Below, one piece after another: positions 1-9,463 of a stretch of DNA of 9,463 nucleotides. Position 1 is the first letter of the stretch, and the number at the start of each line of letters is the position of its first letter. The notes beneath the pieces were generated by a model that ran no database searches, was not told the DNA's origin, and saw only the letters and a program-made list of their open reading frames with translations. A program made the position numbers and the translations under genes. Location of the stretch: IMG/VR virus record IMGVR_UViG_2681813268_000008; one strand, 5' to 3'. The stretch comes from a virus. Its lineage: Duplodnaviria > Heunggongvirae > Uroviricota > Caudoviricetes.

Positions 1-1541
1 CGCCTGCTGGTTCAGATACAGCGTAACGGTGGCTGGGTGACGGAAAAAGACATCACCATTAAGGGCAAAACCACTTCGCAGTATCTGGCCTCGGTGGTGG
101 TGGGTAACCTGCCGCCGCGCCCGTTTAATATCCGGATGCGCAGGATGACACCGGACAGCACCACAGACCAGCTGCAGAACAAAACGCTCTGGTCGTCGTA
201 CACCGAAATCATCGATGTGAAACAGTGCTACCCGAACACGGCGCTGGTCGGCGTGCAGGTGGATTCAGAGCAGTTCGGTAACCAGCAGGTGAGTCGCAAT
301 TATCATCTTCGCGGGCGCATTCTGCAGGTGCCGTCGAACTATAACCCGCAGACGCGGCAATACAGCGGTATCTGGGACGGAACGCTTAAGCCAGCATACA
401 GCAACAACATGGCCTGGTGTCTGTGGGACATGCTCACTCATCCGCGCTACGGCATGGGGAAACGTCTTGGTGCGGCAGATGTGGACAAATGGGCGCTGTA
501 TGTCATCGGCCAGTACTGCGACCAGTCAGTGACGGACGGATTTGGCGGCACGGAGCCGCGCATCACCTGTAACTCTTACCTGACCACACAGCGTAAGGCG
601 TGGGATGTTCTCAGTGATTTCTGCTCGGCGATGCGCTGTATGCCGGTATGGAACGGACAGATGCTGACGTTCGTGCAGGACCGACCGTCGGATAAGGTGT
701 GGACCTATAACCGCAGTAATGTGGTGATGCCGGACGATGGCGCGCCGTTCCGCTACAGCTTCAGCGCCCTGAAGGACCGCCATAATGCCGTTGAGGTGAA
801 CTGGATTGACCCAGATAACGGCTGGGAGACGGCGACAGAGCTTGTGGAGGATACGCAGGCCATTGTCCGTTACGGTCGTAACGTCACGAAGATGGATGCC
901 TTTGGCTGTACCAGCCGGGGGCAGGCACACCGAGCCGGGCTGTGGCTGATTAAAACGGAACTGCTGGAAACGCAGACCGTGGACTTCAGCGTGGGCGCAG
1001 AAGGGCTTCGCCATGTACCGGGTGATGTCATTGAAATCTGCGATGATGATTATGCCGGTATCAGCACCGGTGGTCGCGTACTGGCGGTGAACAGCCAGAC
1101 CCGGACGCTGACGCTCGACCGTGAAATCACGCTGCCGTCCTCCGGTACCACGCTGATAAGCCTGGTTGACGGAAGTGGCAATCCGGTCAGCGTGGAGGTC
1201 CAGTCCGTCACCGACGGCGTGAAGGTGAAAGTGAGCCGGGTTCCTGACGGCGTTGCAGAATACAGCGTGTGGGGGCTGAAGCTGCCGACGCTGCGCCAGC
1301 GTCTGTTCCGCTGCGTGAGTATCCGTGAGAACGACGACGGCACGTATGCCATCACCGCCGTGCAGCATGTGCCGGAAAAAGAGGCCATCGTGGATAACGG
1401 GGCACACTTTGACGGTGACCGGCGCGGCACGGTGAATGGTGTCACGCCGCCAGCGGTGCAGCATCTGACCGCCGAAGTCACCGCAGACAGCGGGGAATAT
1501 CAGGTGCTGGCGCGATGGGACACGCCGAAGGTGGTGAAGGG
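1..1541 (+). pseudogene. J: Tail tip / host specificity protein J, internal fragment A. The 5' end is off-window; J homology stops at 1541, and the frame-1 ORF then reads through the inverted segment to a stop at 1990-1992.
   Basis: Frame-1 translation (RLLVQIQRNGGWVTEKDITIKGK...[18 protein letters not shown]...[19 protein letters not shown]) matches the middle of lambda J as I recall it. After 1541 the + strand is the reverse complement of J sequence, so the provided ORF 37..1992 is a chimeric read-through. Confidence 0.85.
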
Positions 1542-2390
1542 ATATTCCCCGCTGTCTGCGGTGACTTCTGCGGTCAGGTGTTGCACTGCTGGCGGAGTGA
1601 CACCATTCACCGTGCCGCTCTGGTCGCCGTCAAAGTGCGCCCCGTTATCCACGATGGCTTCTTTCTCCGGCACATGCTGCACGGCAGTGATGGCATACGT
1701 ACCGTCATCGTTCTCACGGATACTCACGCAGCGGAACAGGCGCTGGCGCAGCGTCGGCAGCTTCAGCCCCCACACGCTGTATTCTGCAACGCCGTCAGGA
1801 ACCCGGCTCACTTTCACCTTCACGCCGTCGGTGACGGACTGGACCTCCACGCTGACCGGATTCCCCTGTCCGTCAACCAGGCTTATCAGCGTGGTGCCGG
1901 AGGATGGCAGCGTGATTTCACGGTCGAGCGTCAGTGTCCGCGTCTGGCTGTTCACCGCCAGCACGCGCCCGCCGATGCTGATACCCGCATAGTCATCATC
2001 ACAGATTTCAATGACATCGCCCGGTACATGGCGAAGCCCTTCAGCACCCACGCTGAAATCCACGGTCTGCGTCTCCAGCAGTTCCGTTTTAATCAGCCAC
2101 AGCCCGGCGCGGTGTGCCTGCCCCCGGCTGGTACAGCCAAAGGCATCCATCTTCGTGACGTTACGACCGTAACGGACAATGGCCTGCGTATCTTCAACAA
2201 GCTCTGTCGCCGTCTCCCAGCCGTTATTCGGGTCAATCCAGTTCACCTCAACGGCATTATGACGGTCCTTCAGGGCGCTGAAGCTGTAGCGGAACGGCGC
2301 GCCATCATCCGGCATCACCACATTACTGCGGTTATAGGCCCACACCTTATCCGACTGTCGGTCCTGCACGAACGTCAGCGTCTGCCCGTT
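1542..2390 (-). pseudogene. J: Inverted internal fragment of J (J residues ~[17 protein letters not shown]...DSGEY) on the minus strand.
   Basis: Minus-strand ORF 1500..2369 translates to [15 protein letters not shown]...LVDGQGNPV...FDGDQSGTV...DSGEY, colinear with the + strand J copies. Reverse complement of 1542-1960 equals 4531-4949 with one mismatch; reverse complement of 1962-2390 is about 97% identical to 2392-2820 (by-eye alignment). Confidence 0.8.
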
Positions 2391-3241
2391 AAACGGGCAG
2401 ACGCTGACGTTCGTGCAGGACCGACCGTCGGATAAGGTGTGGACCTATAACCGCAGTAATGTGGTGATGCCGGATGATGGCGCGCCGTTCCGCTACAGTT
2501 TCAGCGCCCTGAAAGACCGCCATAATGCCGTTGAGGTGAACTGGATTGACCCGGATAACGGCTGGGAGACGGCGACAGAGCTTGTGGAGGATACGCAGGC
2601 CATTGTCCGTTACGGTCGTAACGTCACGAAGATGGATGCCTTTGGCTGTACCAGCCGGGGGCAGGCACACCGCGCCGGGCTGTGGCTGATTAAAACGGAA
2701 CTGCTGGAGACGCAGACCGTGGATTTCAGCGTGGGTGCTGAAGGGCTTCGTCATGTACCGGGCGATGTCATTGAAATCTGCGATGATGACTATGCCGGTA
2801 TCCGCACCGGCGGGCGCGTGCTGGCGGTGAACAGCCAGACCCGGACGCTGACGCTCGACCGTGAAATCACGCTGCCGTCCTCCGGTACCACGCTGATAAG
2901 CCTGGTTGACGGAAGTGGCAATCCGGTCAGCGTGGAGGTCCAGTCCGTCACCGACGGCGTGAAGGTGAAAGTGAGCCGGGTTCCTGACGGCGTTGCAGAA
3001 TACAGCGTGTGGGGGCTGAAGCTGCCGACGCTGCGCCAGCGTCTGTTCCGCTGCGTGAGTATCCGTGAGAACGACGACGGCACGTATGCCATCACCGCCG
3101 TGCAGCATGTGCCGGAAAAAGAGGCCATCGTGGATAACGGGGCACACTTTGACGGTGACCGGCGCGGCACGGTGAATGGTGTCACGCCGCCAGCGGTGCA
3201 GCATCTGACCGCCGAAGTCACCGCAGACAGCGGGGAATATC
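1542..3241. repeat. Large imperfect inverted repeat (near-palindrome): arm 1542-2390 against arm 2392-3241, with a single unpaired base at 2391. The first ~34 bp on each side of the centre are perfectly complementary.
   Basis: Sequence around the centre is 'cctgcacgaacgtcagcgtctgcccgtt a aacgggcagacgctgacgttcgtgcagg'. Arms show about 97% identity in the proximal 430 bp by eye. Confidence 0.85.
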
Positions 3242-4539
3242 AGGTGCTGGCGCGATGGGACACGCCGAAGGTGGTGAAGGGTGTGAGCTTCCTGCTTCGC
3301 CTGACCGTGGCAGCGGACGACGGCAGTGAGCGGCTGGTCAGCACAGCCAGGACGACGGAAACCACATACCGCTTCAGGCAGCTGGCGCTGGGGAATTACA
3401 GTCTGACAGTCCGGGCGGTAAATGCCCGGGGGCAGCAGGGCGATCCGGCGTCGGTATCGTTCCGGATTGCGGCACCGGCAGCGCCTGTCACTATTGAACT
3501 GATACCGGGGTATTTTCAGATAACGGCGGTCCCGAAACTGGCTGTATATGACCCGACGGTGCAGTTTGAGTTCTGGTTTTCGGAAAAGCGGATTGCGGAT
3601 ATCAGGCAGGTTGAAACCAGCGCCCGCTATCTTGGCACGGCGCTGTACTGGATAGCCGCCAGTATCAATATCAGGCCGGGCCATGATTATTATTTTTACG
3701 TTCGCAGTGTGAACACCGTTGGCAAATCGGCATTTGTGGAGGCCATCGGTCGGGCGAGCGATGATGCAGAAGGTTATCTGAATTTTTATAAAGGGTTGAT
3801 CAATAAAACGCATCTCGGCAAGGAGTTGTGGACGCAGATTGATAACGGTCAGCTTGCGCCGGACCTGACTGAAATCAGGACGTCCATTACGAATGTCAGC
3901 AATGAAATCACGCAAACCGTCAATAAAAAACTGGAAAATCAGAGTGCTGCAATCCAGCAGATACAGAAAGTTCAGGTTGATACAAATAATAACCTGAACA
4001 GCATGTGGGCTGTGAAGCTGCAACAGATGAAGGACGGACGCCTTTATATTGCGGGTATCGGTGCCGGTATTGAGAATACGCCAGCAGGAATGCAGAGTCA
4101 GGTGCTGCTGGCGGCAGACAGGATTGCGATGATTAATCCTGCGAATGGCAACACAAAGCCGATGTTTGTTGGTCAGGGCGATCAGATATTCATGAACGAC
4201 GTGTTCCTGAAATGCCTGACGGCTCCGACCATTACCAGCGGCGGTAATCCTCCGGCATTTTCCCTGACACCTGGCGGACGGCTGACGGCGAAAAATGCCG
4301 ATATCAGCGGTAACGTGAACGCGAACTCCGGGACGCTCAACAACGTCACGATTAATAAGAACTGTCGGGTTCTGGGAAAATTGTCCGCGAACCAGATTGA
4401 AGGCGATCTCGTTAAAACAGTGGGCAAACCTTTCCCACGGGACTCCCGGGCACCGGAGAGGTGGCCATCAGGGACCATTACCGTCAGGGTTTATGACGAT
4501 CAGCCGTTTGATCGGCAAATTGTTATTCACTGGCGGTGA
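2392..4539 (+). pseudogene. J: J fragment B, from NGQTLTF to ...[11 protein letters not shown], then junction-derived codons HWR and a stop at 4537-4539. Lacks the J N-terminus and the final ~100 codons.
   Basis: Frame-1 ORF 2413..4539. 2401-2824 is ~96% identical to 661-1084 and 2825-3281 is 100% identical to 1085-1541. The distal part (3282-4528) is a divergent allele of 4990-6238. The stop arises at the B/C junction. Confidence 0.8.
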
Positions 4540-6238
4540 ACAGCCAGACGCGGACACTGACGCTCGACCGTGAAATCACGCTGCCATCCTCCGGCACCAC
4601 GCTGATAAGCCTGGTTGACGGACAGGGGAATCCGGTCAGCGTGGAGGTCCAGTCCGTCACCGACGGCGTGAAGGTGAAAGTGAGCCGGGTTCCTGACGGC
4701 GTTGCAGAATACAGCGTGTGGGGGCTGAAGCTGCCGACGCTGCGCCAGCGCCTGTTCCGCTGCGTGAGTATCCGTGAGAACGATGACGGTACGTATGCCA
4801 TCACTGCCGTGCAGCATGTGCCGGAGAAAGAAGCCATCGTGGATAACGGGGCGCACTTTGACGGCGACCAGAGCGGCACGGTGAATGGTGTCACTCCGCC
4901 AGCAGTGCAACACCTGACCGCAGAAGTCACCGCAGACAGCGGGGAATACCAGGTGCTGGCGCGCTGGGATACGCCGAAGGTGGTGAAGGGCGTGAGCTTT
5001 ATGCTTCGCCTGACCGTGGCAGCGGATGACGGCAGTGAGCGGCTGGTCAGCACAGCCCGGACGACGGAAACCACATACCGCTTCAGGCAGCTGGCTCTGG
5101 GAAATTACAGTCTGACAGTCCGGGCGGTAAATGCGTGGGGGCAGCAGGGCGATCCGGCGTCGGTATCGTTCCGGATTGCCGCACCGGCAGCGCCATCGCG
5201 GATTGAGCTGACGCCGGGCTATTTTCAGATAACCGCCACGCCGCATCTTGCGGTTTATGATCCGACTGTACAGTTTGAGTTCTGGTTCTCGGAAAAGCGG
5301 ATTGCGGATATCAGGCAGGTTGAAACCAGCGCGCGTTATCTTGGTACGGCGCTGCACTGGATAGCCGCCAGTATCAATATCAAACCGGGCCATGATTATT
5401 ATTTTTACGTTCGCAGTGTGAACACCGTTGGCAAATCGGCATTCGTGGAGGCTGTCGGTCGGGCGAGCGATGATGCGGAAGGTTACCTGGATTTTTTCAA
5501 AGGAGAAATCGGGAAAGCACATCTGGCCCAGGAGCTGTGGACGCAGGTTGATAACGGTCAGCTTGCGCCTGATCTGGCTGAAATCAGGACGTCCATTACG
5601 AATGTCAGCAATGAAATCACGCAGACCGTCAATAAAAAACTGGAAAATCAGAGCGCGGCAATCCAGCAGATACAGAAAGTTCAGGTTGATACAAATAATA
5701 ACCTGAACAGCATGTGGGCCGTGAAACTGCAGCAGATGAAGGACGGACGCCTTTATATTGCGGGTATCGGAGCCGGTATTGAGAATACGCCAGCAGGTAT
5801 GCAGAGTCAGGTGCTTCTGGCTGCTGACCGGATTGCGATGATTAATCCTGCGAATGGCAACACAAAGCCGATGTTTGTTGGTCAGGGCGATCAGATATTC
5901 ATGAACGAAGTGTTCCTGAAATACCTGACGGCTCCCACCATTACCAGCGGCGGTAATCCTCCGGCATTTTCCCTGACACCGGACGGGCGGCTGACGGCGA
6001 AAAATGCCGATATCAGCGGTAACGTGAATGCGAACTCCGGGACGCTCAACAACGTCACGATTAACGAAAACTGTCGGGTTCTGGGAAAACTGTCCGCCAA
6101 CCAGATTGAAGGCGATCTCGTTAAAACAGTGGGCAAAGCTTTCCCCCGGGACTCCCGTGCACCGGAGCGGTGGCCATCAGGGACCATTACCGTCAGGGTT
6201 TATGACGATCAGCCGTTTGACCGGCAGATTGTTATTCC
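2819..6238. repeat. Tandem direct repeat of a ~1709-bp J unit (2819-4528 and 4529-6238). Copies are divergent, roughly 90-95% identical in the distal half; the junction is at 4528/4529.
   Basis: 'ctggcggtgaacagcc' occurs at 2821 and 4530; 'attgttattc' at 4519-4528 and 6228-6237. The period of 1709 is not a multiple of 3, which explains the frameshift and stop at 4537-4539. Confidence 0.8.
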
Positions 6239-6524
6239 GGCGGTGGCATTCAGCGGCGCTAAACATGAGAAAGAGCATACTGATATTTACTCCTCATGCC
6301 GTCTGATAGTGCGGAAAAACGGTGCTGAAATTTATAACCGTACCGCGCTGGATAATACGCTGATTTACAGTGGTGTTATTGATATGCCTGCCGGTCACGG
6401 TCACATGACACTGGAGTTTTCGGTGTCAGCATGGCTGGTGAATAACTGGTATCCCACAGCAAGTATCAGCGATTTGCTGGTTGTGGTGATGAAGAAAGCC
6501 ACCGCAGGCATCAGTATCAGCTGA
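4530..6524 (+). CDS. J: J C-terminal fragment C ([10 protein letters not shown]...[10 protein letters not shown]), frame 3, with the native J stop at 6522-6524. Includes the distal receptor-binding region; N-terminally truncated and out of frame with fragment B.
   Basis: ORF 4536..6524 (GTG at 4536 is an internal Val codon in native J). Colinear with fragment B at a constant offset of 1709 bp (2821 to 4530; 4522 to 6231). Ends in a J-like C-terminus followed by a terminator hairpin. Confidence 0.8.
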
Positions 6525-6542
6525 ATTTTATAACCCATATAC

Positions 6543-6570
6543 GGGCGCCAGAAATGGCGCCTTTTTTATT
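6543..6570 (+). terminator. Rho-independent terminator-like hairpin immediately downstream of the J stop.
   Basis: GC stem 'ggcgcc' (6544-6549), loop 'agaaat', stem 'ggcgcc' (6556-6561), followed by 'ttttttatt'. Confidence 0.6.
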
Positions 6571-6591
6571 GCAGAAAAGCGAGAGGTAATT

Positions 6592-7191
6592 ATGCGTAAA
6601 GTTTGTGCAGCCATTTTGTCCGCAGCCATCTGTCTGTCCGTATCCGGTGCGCCTGCATGGGCGTCTGAACATCAGTCCACACTGAGCGCGGGGTATCTTC
6701 ATGCCCGTACGAACGCTCCCGGCAGCGATAATCTGAACGGGATTAACGTGAAATACCGTTATGAGTTTACGGACGCGCTGGGGCTGATTACGTCCTTCAG
6801 TTATGCCAATGCTGAGGATGAGCAAAAAACGCACTACAGCGATACCCGCTGGCATGAAGATTCCGTGCGTAACCGCTGGTTCAGCGTGATGGCGGGGCCG
6901 TCTGTACGCGTGAATGAATGGTTCAGCGCGTATGCGATGGTGGGTGTGGCTTACAGCCGTGTGTCGACTTTCTCCGGGGATTATCTCCGCGTAACTGACA
7001 ACAAGGGGAAAACGCACGATGTGCTGACCGGAAGTGATGACGGTCGCCACAGCAACACGTCTCTGGCGTGGGGGGCTGGCGTGCAGTTTAACCCGACCGA
7101 ATCCGTGACCATTGACCTTGCTTATGAAGGTTCCGGTAGTGGCGACTGGCGAACGGATGCATTTATTGTTGGTATCGGATACCGTTTCTGA
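6592..7191 (+). CDS. lom: Lom-family outer membrane protein (Ail/Lom/PagC/OmpX beta-barrel family), a prophage-encoded moron.
   Basis: 199-aa ORF with an N-terminal signal-peptide-like segment (MRKVCAAILSAAICLSVSGAPAWA), a conserved C-terminus (...AYEGSGSGDWRTDAFIVGIGYRF) matching lambda Lom as I recall it, position between J and stf as in lambda, and an RBS-like 'gagagg' 7 nt upstream of the ATG. Confidence 0.88.
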   Translation: MRKVCAAILSAAICLSVSGAPAWASEHQSTLSAGYLHARTNAPGSDNLNGINVKYRYEFTDALGLITSFSYANAEDEQKTHYSDTRWHEDSVRNRWFSVMAGPSVRVNEWFSAYAMVGVAYSRVSTFSGDYLRVTDNKGKTHDVLTGSDDGRHSNTSLAWGAGVQFNPTESVTIDLAYEGSGSGDWRTDAFIVGIGYRF

Positions 7192-7295
7192 CAACAGACG
7201 CCGATTTATCTTCTGTAAATATTGTTATGATACGCAGGTTCATCCACCTTATGGGGTGAACTGCGTTTGAGGAAACGTAAAGTTACACTGTCCTG

Positions 7296-7329
7296 AAGCC
7301 CGTGGCGTCACTGCTGCGGGCTTTTTTTA
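7296..7329 (+). terminator. Rho-independent terminator-like hairpin between lom and stf.
   Basis: Stem 'aagcccg' (7296-7302) pairs with 'cgggctt' (7317-7323), followed by a T7 run (7322-7328). Confidence 0.55.
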
Positions 7330-7342
7330 TTGGTGGAAAAGT

Positions 7343-9274
7343 ATGACAGTAAAAATTTCTGGCGTGCTTAAAGATGGCACAGGAAAACCAGTACAGAACT
7401 GCACCATTGTGCTGAAGGCCAGACGAACCAGCAGCACGGTGGTGGTGAACACGGTGGCCTCTGAAAATCCGGATGAAGCCGGACGTTACAGCATGGATGT
7501 TGAGCATGGCCAGTACAGCGTCACCCTGCTGGTTGAAGGTTTTCCGCCTTCACATGCCGGGATCATTACCGTCTATGAAGGTTCCAGACCCGGTACGCTG
7601 AATGATTTTCTCGGTGCCATGACGGAGGATGATGTCCGACCGGAGGCACTGCGCCGCTTTGAGCAGATGGTGGAAGAGGTGTCACGTAACGCCTCCGCGG
7701 TTGCACAGAACACGGCAGCCGCGAAGAAGTCAGCCAGCGATGCCAGCATATCTGCCAGTGAGGCGGCAACCCATGCGACTGATGCTGCAGGCTCAGCACG
7801 TGCAGCCAGCACATCAGCCGGGCAGGCCGCGACGTCGGCTCAGTCAGCGTCTTCCAGCGCAGGAACGGCATCAACAAAGGCTACTGAAGCATCAAAAAGT
7901 GCTGCCGCTGCAGAGTCCTCAAAAAGAGCGGTGGCTACCAGTGCCGGTGCGGCGAAAACGTCAGAAACGAATGCGGCTGCGTCACAACAATCAGCAGCCA
8001 CTTCTGCATCCACCGCGACCACGAAAGCGTCAGAAGCAGCCACTTCAGCACGGGATGCGGCGGCCTCAAAAGAGGCAGCGAAGACATCCGAAACGAATGC
8101 GAAAGCCTCGGAAACCAGCGCAGAATCCTCAAAAACGGCTGCCGCATCGTCCGCCAGTTCGGCGGCGTCATCGGCATCATCTGCGTCTGCTTCAAAAGAT
8201 GAGGCGACCAGACAGGCGTCAGCAGCAAAGGGCAGCGCCACGACGGCATCCACGAAGGCGACAGAGGCAGCTGGCAGTGCGACGGCGGCAGCTCAGAGCA
8301 AAAGTACGGCGGAATCCGCGGCAACGCGCGCCGAGACAGCGGCAAAACGGGCAGAGGATATTGCATCCGCCGTGGCGCTTGAGGATGCGAGCACGACGAA
8401 AAAGGGGATAGTACAGCTCAGCAGTGCGACCAACAGTACGTCTGAAACGCTGGCGGCAACGCCAAAGGCAGTAAAATCAGCCTATGACAATGCAGAGAAA
8501 CGTCTGCAGAAAGACCAGAACGGCGCTGATATACCCGATAAGGGACGCTTCCTGAACAACATTAACGCGGTCAGTAAAACAGACTTTGCTGATAAGCGTG
8601 GTATGCGTTATGTGCGGGTTAACGCTCCTGCAGGTGCAACATCTGGAAAATATTACCCTGTTGTTGTTATGCGTTCTGCTGGCTCAGTAAGCGAACTGGC
8701 ATCAAGGGTCATTATCACCACGGCAACGCGAACCGCAGGCGATCCGATGAATAACTGCGAGTTTAACGGATTTGTTATGCCTGGTGGCTGGACTGACAGG
8801 GGGCGTTATGCTTATGGAATGTTCTGGCAATATCAAAACAATGAACGAGCCATCCACTCAATAATGATGAGTAATAAGGGCGATGATTTGCGCTCTGTGT
8901 TCTATGTTGATGGCGCTGCTTTCCCTGTTTTTGCGTTTATCGAAGATGGCCTGTCAATATCCGCACCTGGTGCTGATCTCGTTGTTAATGATACGACCTA
9001 TAAGTTTGGGGCAACAAATCCAGCGACTGAATGTATCGCGGCGGACGTTATCCTTGATTTTAAGAGTGGGCGTGGTTTTTATGAGTCTCATTCGTTAATC
9101 GTTAACGATAATTTGTCGTGCAAAAAACTTTTTGCCACAGACGAAATTGTAGCGCGTGGTGGTAATCAGATTCGAATGATAGGTGGGGAGTATGGTGCAT
9201 TATGGCGTAATGATGGCGCTAAAACTTACCTGCTGCTTACCAATCAAGGTGATGTTTATGAAGTGGCACACTGA
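7343..9274 (+). CDS. stf: Side tail fiber protein Stf, with a lambda-Stf-like N-terminus and Ala/Ser-rich repeat shaft. The C-terminus appears truncated by an IS insertion; the last codons and stop come from the IS end.
   Basis: 643-aa ORF. The N-terminus (MTVKISGVLKDGTGKPVQNCTIVLKARR...GFPPSHAGIITVYE...) and the low-complexity A/S/T-rich region match lambda Stf (orf-401) from memory. The ORF ends ...LLLTNQGDVYEVAH*, where 'tgaagtggcacactga' (9259-9274) is the start of the IS terminal repeat. Confidence 0.82.
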   Translation: MTVKISGVLKDGTGKPVQNCTIVLKARRTSSTVVVNTVASENPDEAGRYSMDVEHGQYSVTLLVEGFPPSHAGIITVYEGSRPGTLNDFLGAMTEDDVRPEALRRFEQMVEEVSRNASAVAQNTAAAKKSASDASISASEAATHATDAAGSARAASTSAGQAATSAQSASSSAGTASTKATEASKSAAAAESSKRAVATSAGAAKTSETNAAASQQSAATSASTATTKASEAATSARDAAASKEAAKTSETNAKASETSAESSKTAAASSASSAASSASSASASKDEATRQASAAKGSATTASTKATEAAGSATAAAQSKSTAESAATRAETAAKRAEDIASAVALEDASTTKKGIVQLSSATNSTSETLAATPKAVKSAYDNAEKRLQKDQNGADIPDKGRFLNNINAVSKTDFADKRGMRYVRVNAPAGATSGKYYPVVVMRSAGSVSELASRVIITTATRTAGDPMNNCEFNGFVMPGGWTDRGRYAYGMFWQYQNNERAIHSIMMSNKGDDLRSVFYVDGAAFPVFAFIEDGLSISAPGADLVVNDTTYKFGATNPATECIAADVILDFKSGRGFYESHSLIVNDNLSCKKLFATDEIVARGGNQIRMIGGEYGALWRNDGAKTYLLLTNQGDVYEVAH

Positions 9275-9463
9275 ATTTGGCCACCTGAACAGAGGTGATA
9301 TGCTCACCTCAGAACAACACAGGTGCTCCAATGAAAAAAAGAAATTTCAGCGCAGAGTTTAAACGCGAATCCGCTCAACTGGTTGTTGACCAGAACTACA
9401 CGGTGGCAGATGCCGCCAAAGCTATGGATGTTGGCCTTTCCACAATGACAAGATGGGTCAAAC
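9259..9463 (+). mobile_element. IS3-family insertion sequence, IS911-like, left end. Partial; it continues beyond the window.
   Basis: Terminal sequence begins 'TGAAGTGGCACACTGAATTTGGCC...' (a TG... end typical of the IS3 family), followed 72 bp later by an ORF beginning [44 protein letters not shown], which I recognise as IS911 OrfA. Confidence 0.75.
9331..9463 (+). CDS. insN: IS3-family (IS911-like) transposase OrfA, N-terminal helix-turn-helix part. Partial; the 3' end is off-window.
   Basis: ATG at 9331; translation [44 protein letters not shown]... is characteristic of IS911/IS3-group OrfA. There is no stop before the window end, so it is absent from the provided ORF track. Confidence 0.75.

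Follow-up and report, generated by a model that had tools for sequence, protein, structure and literature searches.

The scaffolder SSPACE inserts a single n between contigs that it takes to overlap. GapFiller extends the edges of a gap base by base and decides allelic ambiguities by a majority-ratio vote (PMC3446322), and SSPACE and GapFiller are both greedy and able to make false joins (PMC5320598). In E. coli, an interrupted palindrome of as little as 246 bp folds into a hairpin, which is cut by SbcCD in each replication cycle, and palindromes of this type exceed any found in nature in length (PMC3315005). Mosaicism among alleles of the lambdoid tail-tip attachment gene J is ordinary and already known. 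Here we analysed a 9463-nt stretch of viral DNA (the window), in which a first-pass annotation had described J fragments that switch between alleles at one recurrent 16-nt motif. We find that the window is very probably a mis-scaffolded short-read draft contig assembled from paralogous prophage J pieces, an artefact laid on top of ordinary J mosaicism.

First, the window proved to be the whole of the NCBI draft contig CXEW01000190.1 (9463 nt), save that the N of the record is an A in the window at positions 1542, 2391 and 4529. The record contains N nowhere else, and comparison of the window with itself placed its three junctions exactly at these three positions. The window is therefore a scaffold of four pieces, P1 (1–1541), P2 (1543–2390, reversed), P3 (2392–4528) and P4 (4530–9463), and because it displays N as A, the joins resemble sequence-resolved junctions of an inversion and a duplication. 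We found no usable homology across any of the three junctions and no overlap between neighbouring pieces; the pieces overlap in J itself, P4 running from position 5081 of the annotated reference L001 to the end (Table 1). At the third gap, natural alleles read ...GTTATTC CGGCGGTGGCATTC, without passing into the 16-mer. In principle, one lone N might stand for a poorly read base inside a true junction. A literature search for the accession numbers returned nothing relevant.

The locus was identified as the lambdoid gene J with lom and stf from the Pfam domains of gpJ (FNIII-A_GpJ, Phage-tail_3, Ig_J, Ig_J_second, Phage_Tail_Tip and Ig_GpJ_C) and from the J-lom-stf order, with which the annotation of L001 and L006–L009 agrees. 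The Phage-tail_3 domain ends around J nt 1480–1500, where a low-diversity stretch begins. Likeness to a normal stf stops near 9260, and the match to an IS3-family element begins at 9247. As laid out in the window, J is split into three non-functional reading frames; frame 1 of P1 encodes J protein up to 1541 and nonsense beyond.

Table 1 Pieces, gaps, genes and motif copies in the window (L001 is the annotated J-lom-stf reference used for J coordinates)
Feature	Position	Strand	Note
Piece P1, J allele alpha (fragment)	1–1541	+	J nt 406–1946; L001 4001–5541; collinear with L001 J
Divergent patch, alpha versus beta	385–1080	+	L001 4385–5080; right edge is the A/B switch
Motif copy in P1	1081–1096	+	opening bases of the 461-nt block common to alpha and beta
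Scaffold gap 1	1542	.	N in CXEW01000190.1, A in the window; flanks without mutual homology
Piece P2, fragment of gamma-like J allele, reversed	1543–2390	-	L001 5499 down to 4652
Motif copy in reversed P2	1946–1961	-	motif scan
Scaffold gap 2	2391	.	N in CXEW01000190.1; centre of apparent 850-nt palindrome
Piece P3, J allele beta (fragment)	2392–4528	+	L001 4652–6787
Motif copy in P3	2821–2836	+	motif scan; A/B alignment
Scaffold gap 3	4529	.	N in CXEW01000190.1; junction of apparent 1709-nt tandem repeat
Piece P4, J portion: allele gamma, 3′ part	4530–6524	+	J nt 1486–3480
Motif copy in P4	4530–4545	+	very first bases of P4
lom (Ail/Lom outer-membrane protein gene), within P4	6592–7191	+	Pfam families; synteny with annotated L001
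stf, side tail fibre gene, 643 aa	7343–9274	+	gene end passes into IS3-family element
IS3-family insertion sequence, start only	9247–9463	+	repeat at the terminus of the contig

Every piece was collinear with a natural J allele of other assemblies. P1 differed from its closest natural allele, L010, at 4 sites over 890 nt, and L010 is contiguous across the motif. The independent contig L090, which is free of N, differed from 2392–4027 of P3 at 2 sites in 1636 nt and ran collinearly through both 4652 and 5081. Mismatches of P2 numbered five against positions 81–928 of the sister contig L003 and six against L072, and the whole of P4 was 99.98% identical to L003 510–5443. In L003, the reverse complement of P2 and P4 make up one ordinary J-lom-stf contig, and the gamma locus was ordinary and collinear in all of the sister contigs L003–L005. 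In a megablast search with the whole window, the best matches listed from 279 records of phages and 6748 of complete E. coli genomes showed an ordinary collinear J-lom-stf order, and the rearranged layout was absent from them; among the matches listed, positions 1–9267 corresponded to ~6.06 kb, and one match spanned 9.75 kb and contained an IS3-like element. A 23-mer from the palindrome centre gave 0 exact matches in viral, genome and metagenome collections, with a query that carried the substituted A and would match only the same artefact after the same processing. Together, the N placeholders in the record, the pieces that are individually collinear and overlapping, and the lack of this layout in the sister contigs and the matches listed point to scaffold joins at the junctions.

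The piece ends also lie where paralogues part. P1 ends (L001 5541) one base short of site 5542, where the paralogues differ, one end of P2 falls at the variable site 5499|5500, and P4 starts one base past the variable site 5080; with 6.2% of sites variable, the chance is ~2e-4 that all three of these ends (5541|5542, 5499|5500 and 5080|5081) lie directly beside a position at which the pieces differ. The other end of P2 and the start of P3 share one L001 coordinate, 4652, at which the end of an IS21-family element directly precedes J in L003, so that two piece ends coincide with an IS21-family|J junction. For P3, whose end is L001 6787, the nearest visible variable site follows at a distance of two bases instead of one. 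In the sister assembly L004, a 30-nt poly-G fill stands in place of L001 5075–5104, and the same spot was therefore an assembly break there as well.

These observations are best accounted for by an assembly error. The source would be an Escherichia/Shigella-type genome with several lambdoid prophages or their remnants, whose J genes would be paralogues of ~93–98% identity. Graph and greedy-extension assemblers would be unable to choose a continuation where such paralogues converge or diverge, and the pieces would have stopped at the SNPs at L001 5080, 5500 and 5542 and at the IS21-family|J junction at 4652. A scaffolder would then have chained four separately assembled pieces, one of them reversed, with a single N per join. 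At least three source alleles would have contributed: alpha (1–1541), a gamma-like allele (1543–2390), beta (2392–4528) and gamma with lom, stf and the insertion sequence (4530–9463); the first-pass annotation had likewise counted at least three J allele types, which alpha, beta and gamma bear out. That a scaffolder and gap filler of the SSPACE/GapFiller kind made the joins is our guess, and the true genomic positions of the pieces are ones that we infer. The start of P4 at exactly 5081 needs either a small value of k or of the overlap length, or else one more allele with the block 5081–5499 in common; the k-mer at this start is specific to gamma for k > 21, and such a fourth allele would account for where the duplicated block of 419 nt begins and where it ends. 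Ends 5081 and 5541 both border stretches of exactly 20 nt that are common to all alleles. A k of 21 or a 20-nt overlap would fit these two ends, yet would have broken the pieces at many internal sites. Two other artefacts were considered and rejected: a De Bruijn hairpin or microhomology-mediated template switch, as neither inverted nor direct microhomology occurs at the junctions, and a long-read fold-back chimera, as the arms are different alleles and substitutions are their only differences.

Within the window, self-comparison aligned copy A (652–1541) with copy B (2392–3281) over 890 nt with 18 mismatches and 0 gaps. All 18 fell at alignment positions 6–429, the last at 1080/2820, the base that precedes the motif, and the final 461 nt (1081–1541 and 2821–3281) contained none, in line with the first-pass annotation; its range from 661 holds 17 of the 18 mismatches, and the repeat itself starts at 652. 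The annotation had proposed that a uniform distribution of mismatches would undo its block boundary. We ran this check and found the distribution to be non-uniform: under a uniform spread, the probability that all 18 mismatches lie in the first 429 of 890 nt is 1.6e-6, and a stretch of 461 nt or longer without a mismatch would arise anywhere with a probability of ~4e-5. The same comparison yielded a direct repeat of 93% identity (2821–4538 and 4530–6245), near-palindromes of 1541–2390 with both 652–1501 and 2392–3241, and a 419-nt segment, 1543–1961, that is the exact reverse complement of 4530–4948. The repeat copies are different alleles, 4–7% apart, each with its own natural allele match.

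Of the boundaries noted at the motif, only the A/B switch is real biology: it forms the right-hand limit of a patch of ~700 nt in which two natural alleles diverge. P1 and L090 differed at 41 sites, every one within L001 4385–5080, and at 0 sites in 5081–5541, which upholds the block-boundary reading that the annotation had offered for this switch. SNPs between the complete long-read genomes L006 and L007 were clustered likewise, the last clustered SNP again at 5080, and the edge recurs in independently assembled genomes (L010, L090, and L006 versus L007–L009). Differences are significantly non-uniform and the edges sharp, as in a mosaic patch (18/18 in the first 429 of 890 nt). Among the 70 distinct natural alleles, SNP patches are combined in almost all ways, and the real part of the pattern adds nothing new to the known mosaicism.

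How the motif came to mark several boundaries follows from its position. The 16-mer CTGGCGGTGAACAGCC occurs in the window three times on the plus strand (1081, 2821 and 4530) and once on the minus strand (1946–1961), with 0 copies expected by chance. The base directly before it (J nt 1485) is a synonymous site that is polymorphic; the motif itself opens a stretch common to all three alleles of the genome (L001 5081–5100) and precedes a low-diversity stretch of the wider allele sample (L001 5092–5171). Since it opens a stretch shared by all three alleles after a polymorphic site, the contig end at 4530 and the patch edge (1080|1081 and 2820|2821) share one base. Copies do begin at both starts of the tandem unit, 2821 and 4530, as had been noted. 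The inverted arm is indeed identical to the third copy, C, from 1961 to 1543, but the change at 1961 is not an event, because copy C has no sequence upstream of 4530 for comparison; in L003 the arm and C are one collinear allele, with 0 mismatches to the arm over L001 4958–5499. The three coincidences that had been read as independent events at one coordinate are thus not independent, and two of the three are not biological. The assembler had also been suspected of switching paths at a repeat boundary; position 4530, as the 5′ end of a separately assembled piece, favours this alternative, although the pieces were joined there by scaffolding and no path was switched inside a contig.

The 461-nt identity of A and B might itself be a product of assembly, either by collapse or because P3 switched to the alpha path, in which case true beta would differ past 5081. 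No allele in the first sample of 70 distinct alleles was close to P3 in both halves: L076 differed from it at 3 sites in the left half and 20 in the right half, and L010 at 18 and 2. Moreover, alpha equals beta exactly over the block, with their closest natural relatives 2–3 sites off, and signs of allele cross-talk appear in P2 and P3 near 4652–4957. However, an exact 73-mer across the putative switch is present in the independent, N-free L090, which equals P3 over 1636 nt save for two sites and is identical to P1 over 5081–5541; the alpha-like L010 and the beta-like L090 differ at two sites in the block, and the complete long-read genomes L006 and L007 carry the same SNP cluster, ending at 5080. 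We therefore regard an artefactual identity as improbable.

It is similarly doubtful that J nt ~1480–1500 is a preferred end-point of recombination tracts, be it a module boundary kept by selection or an effect of a Chi-like sequence; if it were, the alpha/beta patch edge would be one instance of a recurrent boundary. The related idea of a hotspot that repeatedly sets the end-points of exchange in lambdoid J, formed by the 16-mer or by the Chi-like octamer GCTGGCGG (2820–2827) that overlaps it, strikes us as very improbable. The alpha/beta patch does stop exactly one base before the motif, here and in independent contigs, GCTGGCGG is one base off Chi (GCTGGTGG), and among the 70 natural alleles, long identical runs often have their left edge less than ~10 nt from the motif (5074, 5077 and 5089). 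However, the crossover interval of P3 is bounded only to 5081–5136, and the motif therefore marks the last informative SNP and not a breakpoint. In a crude comparison of pairwise identical runs among the 70 alleles, we found no excess of exchange end-points at the 16-mer over other sites: the left edges of long runs clustered at neighbouring SNPs and not at 5080, which was not in the 12 commonest boundaries listed, whereas 5077, 5089, 5074 and the unrelated 4690 ranked higher. A dip in diversity at 5092–5171 behind a SNP-dense stretch is the simpler account. The window contains 23 octamers one mismatch away from Chi (10.5 expected by chance) and no exact copy of GCTGGTGG, so the overlap of GCTGGCGG with the motif carries little weight, and the other two supposed events are scaffold effects.

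Last, the layout could be real, a decaying prophage in which J underwent inverted and tandem duplication followed by gene conversion from other prophages, with the Ns as uncalled bases in true junctions. Some read-pair evidence presumably underlies the order chosen by the scaffolder, the region is IS-rich and degraded (an IS21-family element truncates gamma J in the sister strain, and an IS3-family element interrupts stf), and reciprocal SNP states in P2 and P3 at L001 4686/4703 could reflect a real exchange. Against this, N occurs at all three junctions and nowhere else, the joins lack homology and microhomology, and both the arms and the repeats derive from different alleles instead of from one another, unlike those of a biological inverted or tandem duplication. 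The gamma locus is ordinary and collinear in three sister assemblies, the layout is absent among the matches listed from complete genomes and phage records, and the piece ends coincide with allele branch points. Read literally, the window would contain a 1.7-kb near-palindrome whose 850-nt arms, separated by a 1-nt spacer, would be a substrate for SbcCD; because of this and of the splitting of J into three non-functional frames, the layout is biologically implausible, and we consider a real rearrangement highly unlikely.

The value of recognizing the window as a mis-scaffolded contig is practical, not biological. Single-N joins in draft genomes mimic inversions, palindromes, duplications and "recurrent breakpoints", worst where a pipeline turns N into a base, and this contig would mislead anyone who searches draft genomes for structural variants of the host-range genes of phages. 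Its gene calls are already in protein databases, as a 651-aa fusion of J with nonsense and as fragments of 700 and 662 aa.

Compared with known systems, the window resembles a Chi (GCTGGTGG) hotspot only in an inexact octamer, one mismatch from Chi, that overlaps the motif start in G-type alleles. Palindrome-mediated inverted and tandem duplications are alike on paper (a fold-back in the order forward-reverse-forward around a 1-nt centre, plus a direct repeat of 1.7 kb) but unlike in substance: the junctions of the window are N and its arms are different alleles. Lambdoid tail-gene (gpJ) mosaicism, which arises by homologous recombination between co-resident or co-infecting prophages, matches alpha and beta, identical save for a patch of ~700 nt and ~6% divergence; the J-lom-stf order and the gpJ Pfam domains are the standard ones here, with no difference from the ordinary pattern, and this mosaicism accounts for only one of the three coincidences that had been noted. 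False joins by scaffolders and gap fillers, such as SSPACE followed by GapFiller, are alike in the N placeholders, in joins between near-identical repeats and in piece ends where the reads of paralogues disagree, and the sister assembly shares with them its junk fill of poly-G.

The window corresponds end to end to NCBI WGS contig CXEW01000190.1 (assembly GCA_001260755.1, 9,463 nt). Base-by-base comparison revealed only three differences, at positions 1542, 2391 and 4529, each of which is N in CXEW01000190.1 and A in the window; the contig holds no other N. These positions coincide exactly with the three junctions of the layout, which identifies the contig as a scaffold of four pieces, P1–P4. 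No homology was found across any of the three joins, and natural sequence runs on differently on either side of each. When mapped onto an annotated prophage (L001, the coordinate reference), the window resolves into four segments of J, the tail-tip attachment protein gene. Since these segments overlap in J coordinates, they represent alternative versions of one J stretch, with allele types designated alpha, beta and gamma.

Pieces of the window and the low-diversity stretch of J
Feature	Window	L001	Orientation or context
P1 (alpha)	1–1541	4001–5541	forward
P2 (gamma-like)	1541–2390 as mapped; piece 1543–2390	5501 down to 4652	reverse
P3 (beta)	2392–4538 as mapped; piece 2392–4528	4652–6796	forward
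P4 (gamma)	4530–9260 as mapped; piece 4530–9463	5081–9811	forward; rest of J, lom and stf
Low-diversity stretch	1092–1171, 2832–2911, 4541–4620	5092–5171	immediately downstream of the Phage-tail_3 domain

Self-comparison confirmed all the repeat coordinates and the patchwork described in the first-pass annotation. The ungapped 890-nt alignment of copy A (652–1541) to copy B (2392–3281) contains 18 mismatches, 2821–4538 matches copy C (4530–6245) at 93%, and 4530–4948 is the exact reverse complement of 1543–1961. Two near-palindromes of 850 nt involve the segment 1541–2390, which pairs with A across a 39-nt spacer and with B across a 1-nt spacer. A 16-mer motif occurs four times in the window (1081, 2821 and 4530 on the plus strand, 1946–1961 on the minus strand), compared with zero expected by chance. 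Not one of the 18 A/B mismatches falls at or beyond 1081/2821; the final one is at the base just before the motif, and the copies are identical over the 461 nt that begin with the motif. Such clustering has P = 1.6e-6 under uniform placement. The patchwork as described stands.

Each piece has a natural counterpart. P1 differs from an IMG/VR contig that is contiguous over the motif (L010) at 4 of 890 sites, and P3 differs at 2 of 1,636 sites from an independent, N-free contig (L090) that is unbroken through L001 4652 and 5081. The reverse complement of P2 together with P4 forms one ordinary contig in a sister assembly (L003; 5 mismatches in 848 nt and 1 in 4,934 nt, respectively), and two more sister contigs (L004 and L005) are collinear too. 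The best matches listed from 279 phage and 6,748 complete-genome E. coli records carry plain collinear J-lom-stf, spanning about 6.06 kb for query 1–9267 (9.75 kb in one, with an IS3-like element), and the rearranged layout is absent among them. At L001 4866, 4882 and 4957, P2 departs from L003, L004 and another natural allele (L072), and at the first two of these sites also from L005; there it agrees with the other alleles of its own genome. At L001 4686/4703 (window 2356 and 2339 in P2; 2426 and 2443 in P3), P2 carries the natural beta states (L090) and P3 the natural gamma states (L003 and L072). This reciprocal swap covers the last ~50–100 nt beside the N at 2391. Both it and the P2 differences could reflect allele cross-talk during gap filling or real exchange.

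The first-pass annotation had proposed three independent events at one motif, caused by a recombination hotspot or block boundary in J, or by an assembler switching paths. The last of these essentially accounts for two of the three coincidences. At 4530, where the tandem unit starts, P4 has its 5′ end, directly after an N. Nor does any event occur at 1961, where the inverted arm appears to become identical to C: the arm is collinear with the L003 gamma allele without mismatch over L001 4958–5499, and C itself begins at 4530, leaving nothing further upstream for comparison. The third coincidence, the A/B switch, falls to the block-boundary alternative as a real, natural and ordinary edge. All 41 mismatches between P1 and L090 lie in L001 4385–5080, with none in 4001–4384 or 5081–5541, and the same SNP cluster recurs in complete-genome alleles (L006 versus L007–L009), where it too stops at 5080. 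The P4 start and the A/B switch coincide because a polymorphic site, 5080, precedes a stretch common to all three alleles of this genome. A hotspot at the motif finds no support: a Chi-like octamer overlaps it, but the window holds 23 near-Chi sites, and the motif is just the sequence next to the last informative SNP.

Natural J alleles form a dense reticulate mosaic. In a set of 70 distinct alleles, long identical runs tend to have their left edges at 5074, 5077 and 5089; the low-diversity stretch comes next, with pi of 0.008–0.016 versus 0.03–0.07 on either side. The switch site corresponds to J residue 495, where the Pfam Phage-tail_3 domain (residues 330–498) is ending. The only differences between alpha (P1) and beta (L090) fall in a ~700-nt patch at window 385–1080, a clean example of a recombination tract within J that covers most of that domain. 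The P3 crossover can be placed only within the interval 5081–5136.

Three piece ends abut allele-variable sites in L001 coordinates (P1 ends at 5541, beside 5542; P2 at 5499, beside 5500; P4 starts at 5081, beside 5080), for which chance gives ~2e-4 at 6.2% variable sites. Two further ends lie at a junction between an IS21-family element and J, and for the P3 end at 6787 the nearest variable site seen is two bases off. Graph or greedy-extension assemblers halt at such points. GapFiller, for instance, lengthens the edges of a gap base by base, taking a majority-ratio vote on allele disagreement (PMC3446322), and the authors of a widely used Velvet-SSPACE-GapFiller pipeline state that these greedy tools can produce false joins (PMC5320598); we infer that such software made the CXEW01 joins. 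Independent support for the motif region as an assembly trouble point comes from L004 (CXEE01000211.1), in which a 33-nt G run (368–400), evidently junk gap fill, lies at the same spot; its last 30 nt (371–400) stand in for an equal length of natural sequence, L001 5075–5104, which includes the motif. With k > 21, no branching is expected of the gamma-specific k-mers at 5081, yet P4 starts there; a further allele with the same block 5081–5499 would account for the 419-nt duplicated block at its start as well as its end.

In L003 (CXEX01000209.1, 1–80), the IS21-family end adjoins J at L001 4652 (J nt 1057), the coordinate where P2 and P3 both end (in the window, the base before 2390/2392). The gamma allele is thus a 5′-truncated remnant between two insertion sequences: the sister strain carries the J-lom-stf locus of P4 as a 5′-truncated prophage remnant, and the window probably does too. 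An IS3-family element starts at ~9247 and extends to 9463, so that the contig ends inside this repeat. stf (7343–9274; 643 aa versus 1,025 aa in L001) appears to be truncated by this element, its frame entering it and stopping at 9274. Among complete genomes, the nearest to alpha and beta are CFSAN029787, an enteroinvasive E. coli (EIEC), RMDEC332/364 and VL46, which also carry the same IS21-family element on ~290-kb plasmids. This hints at an EIEC/Shigella-like, IS-rich source isolate.

Therefore, the patchwork with its recurrent breakpoint is a scaffolding artefact rather than biology, disguised by N-to-A substitution and superimposed on the known mosaicism of J paralogues in prophages. Other windows of the same source may hide such substitutions, letting scaffold gaps pose as sequence. 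Taken as shown, the layout would split J into three dead reading frames, and an enterobacterial chromosome would have to maintain a near-palindrome of 1.7 kb around a 1-nt centre. SbcCD of E. coli cleaves even an interrupted palindrome of 246 bp in each replication cycle, and such palindromes are longer than any found naturally (PMC3315005).
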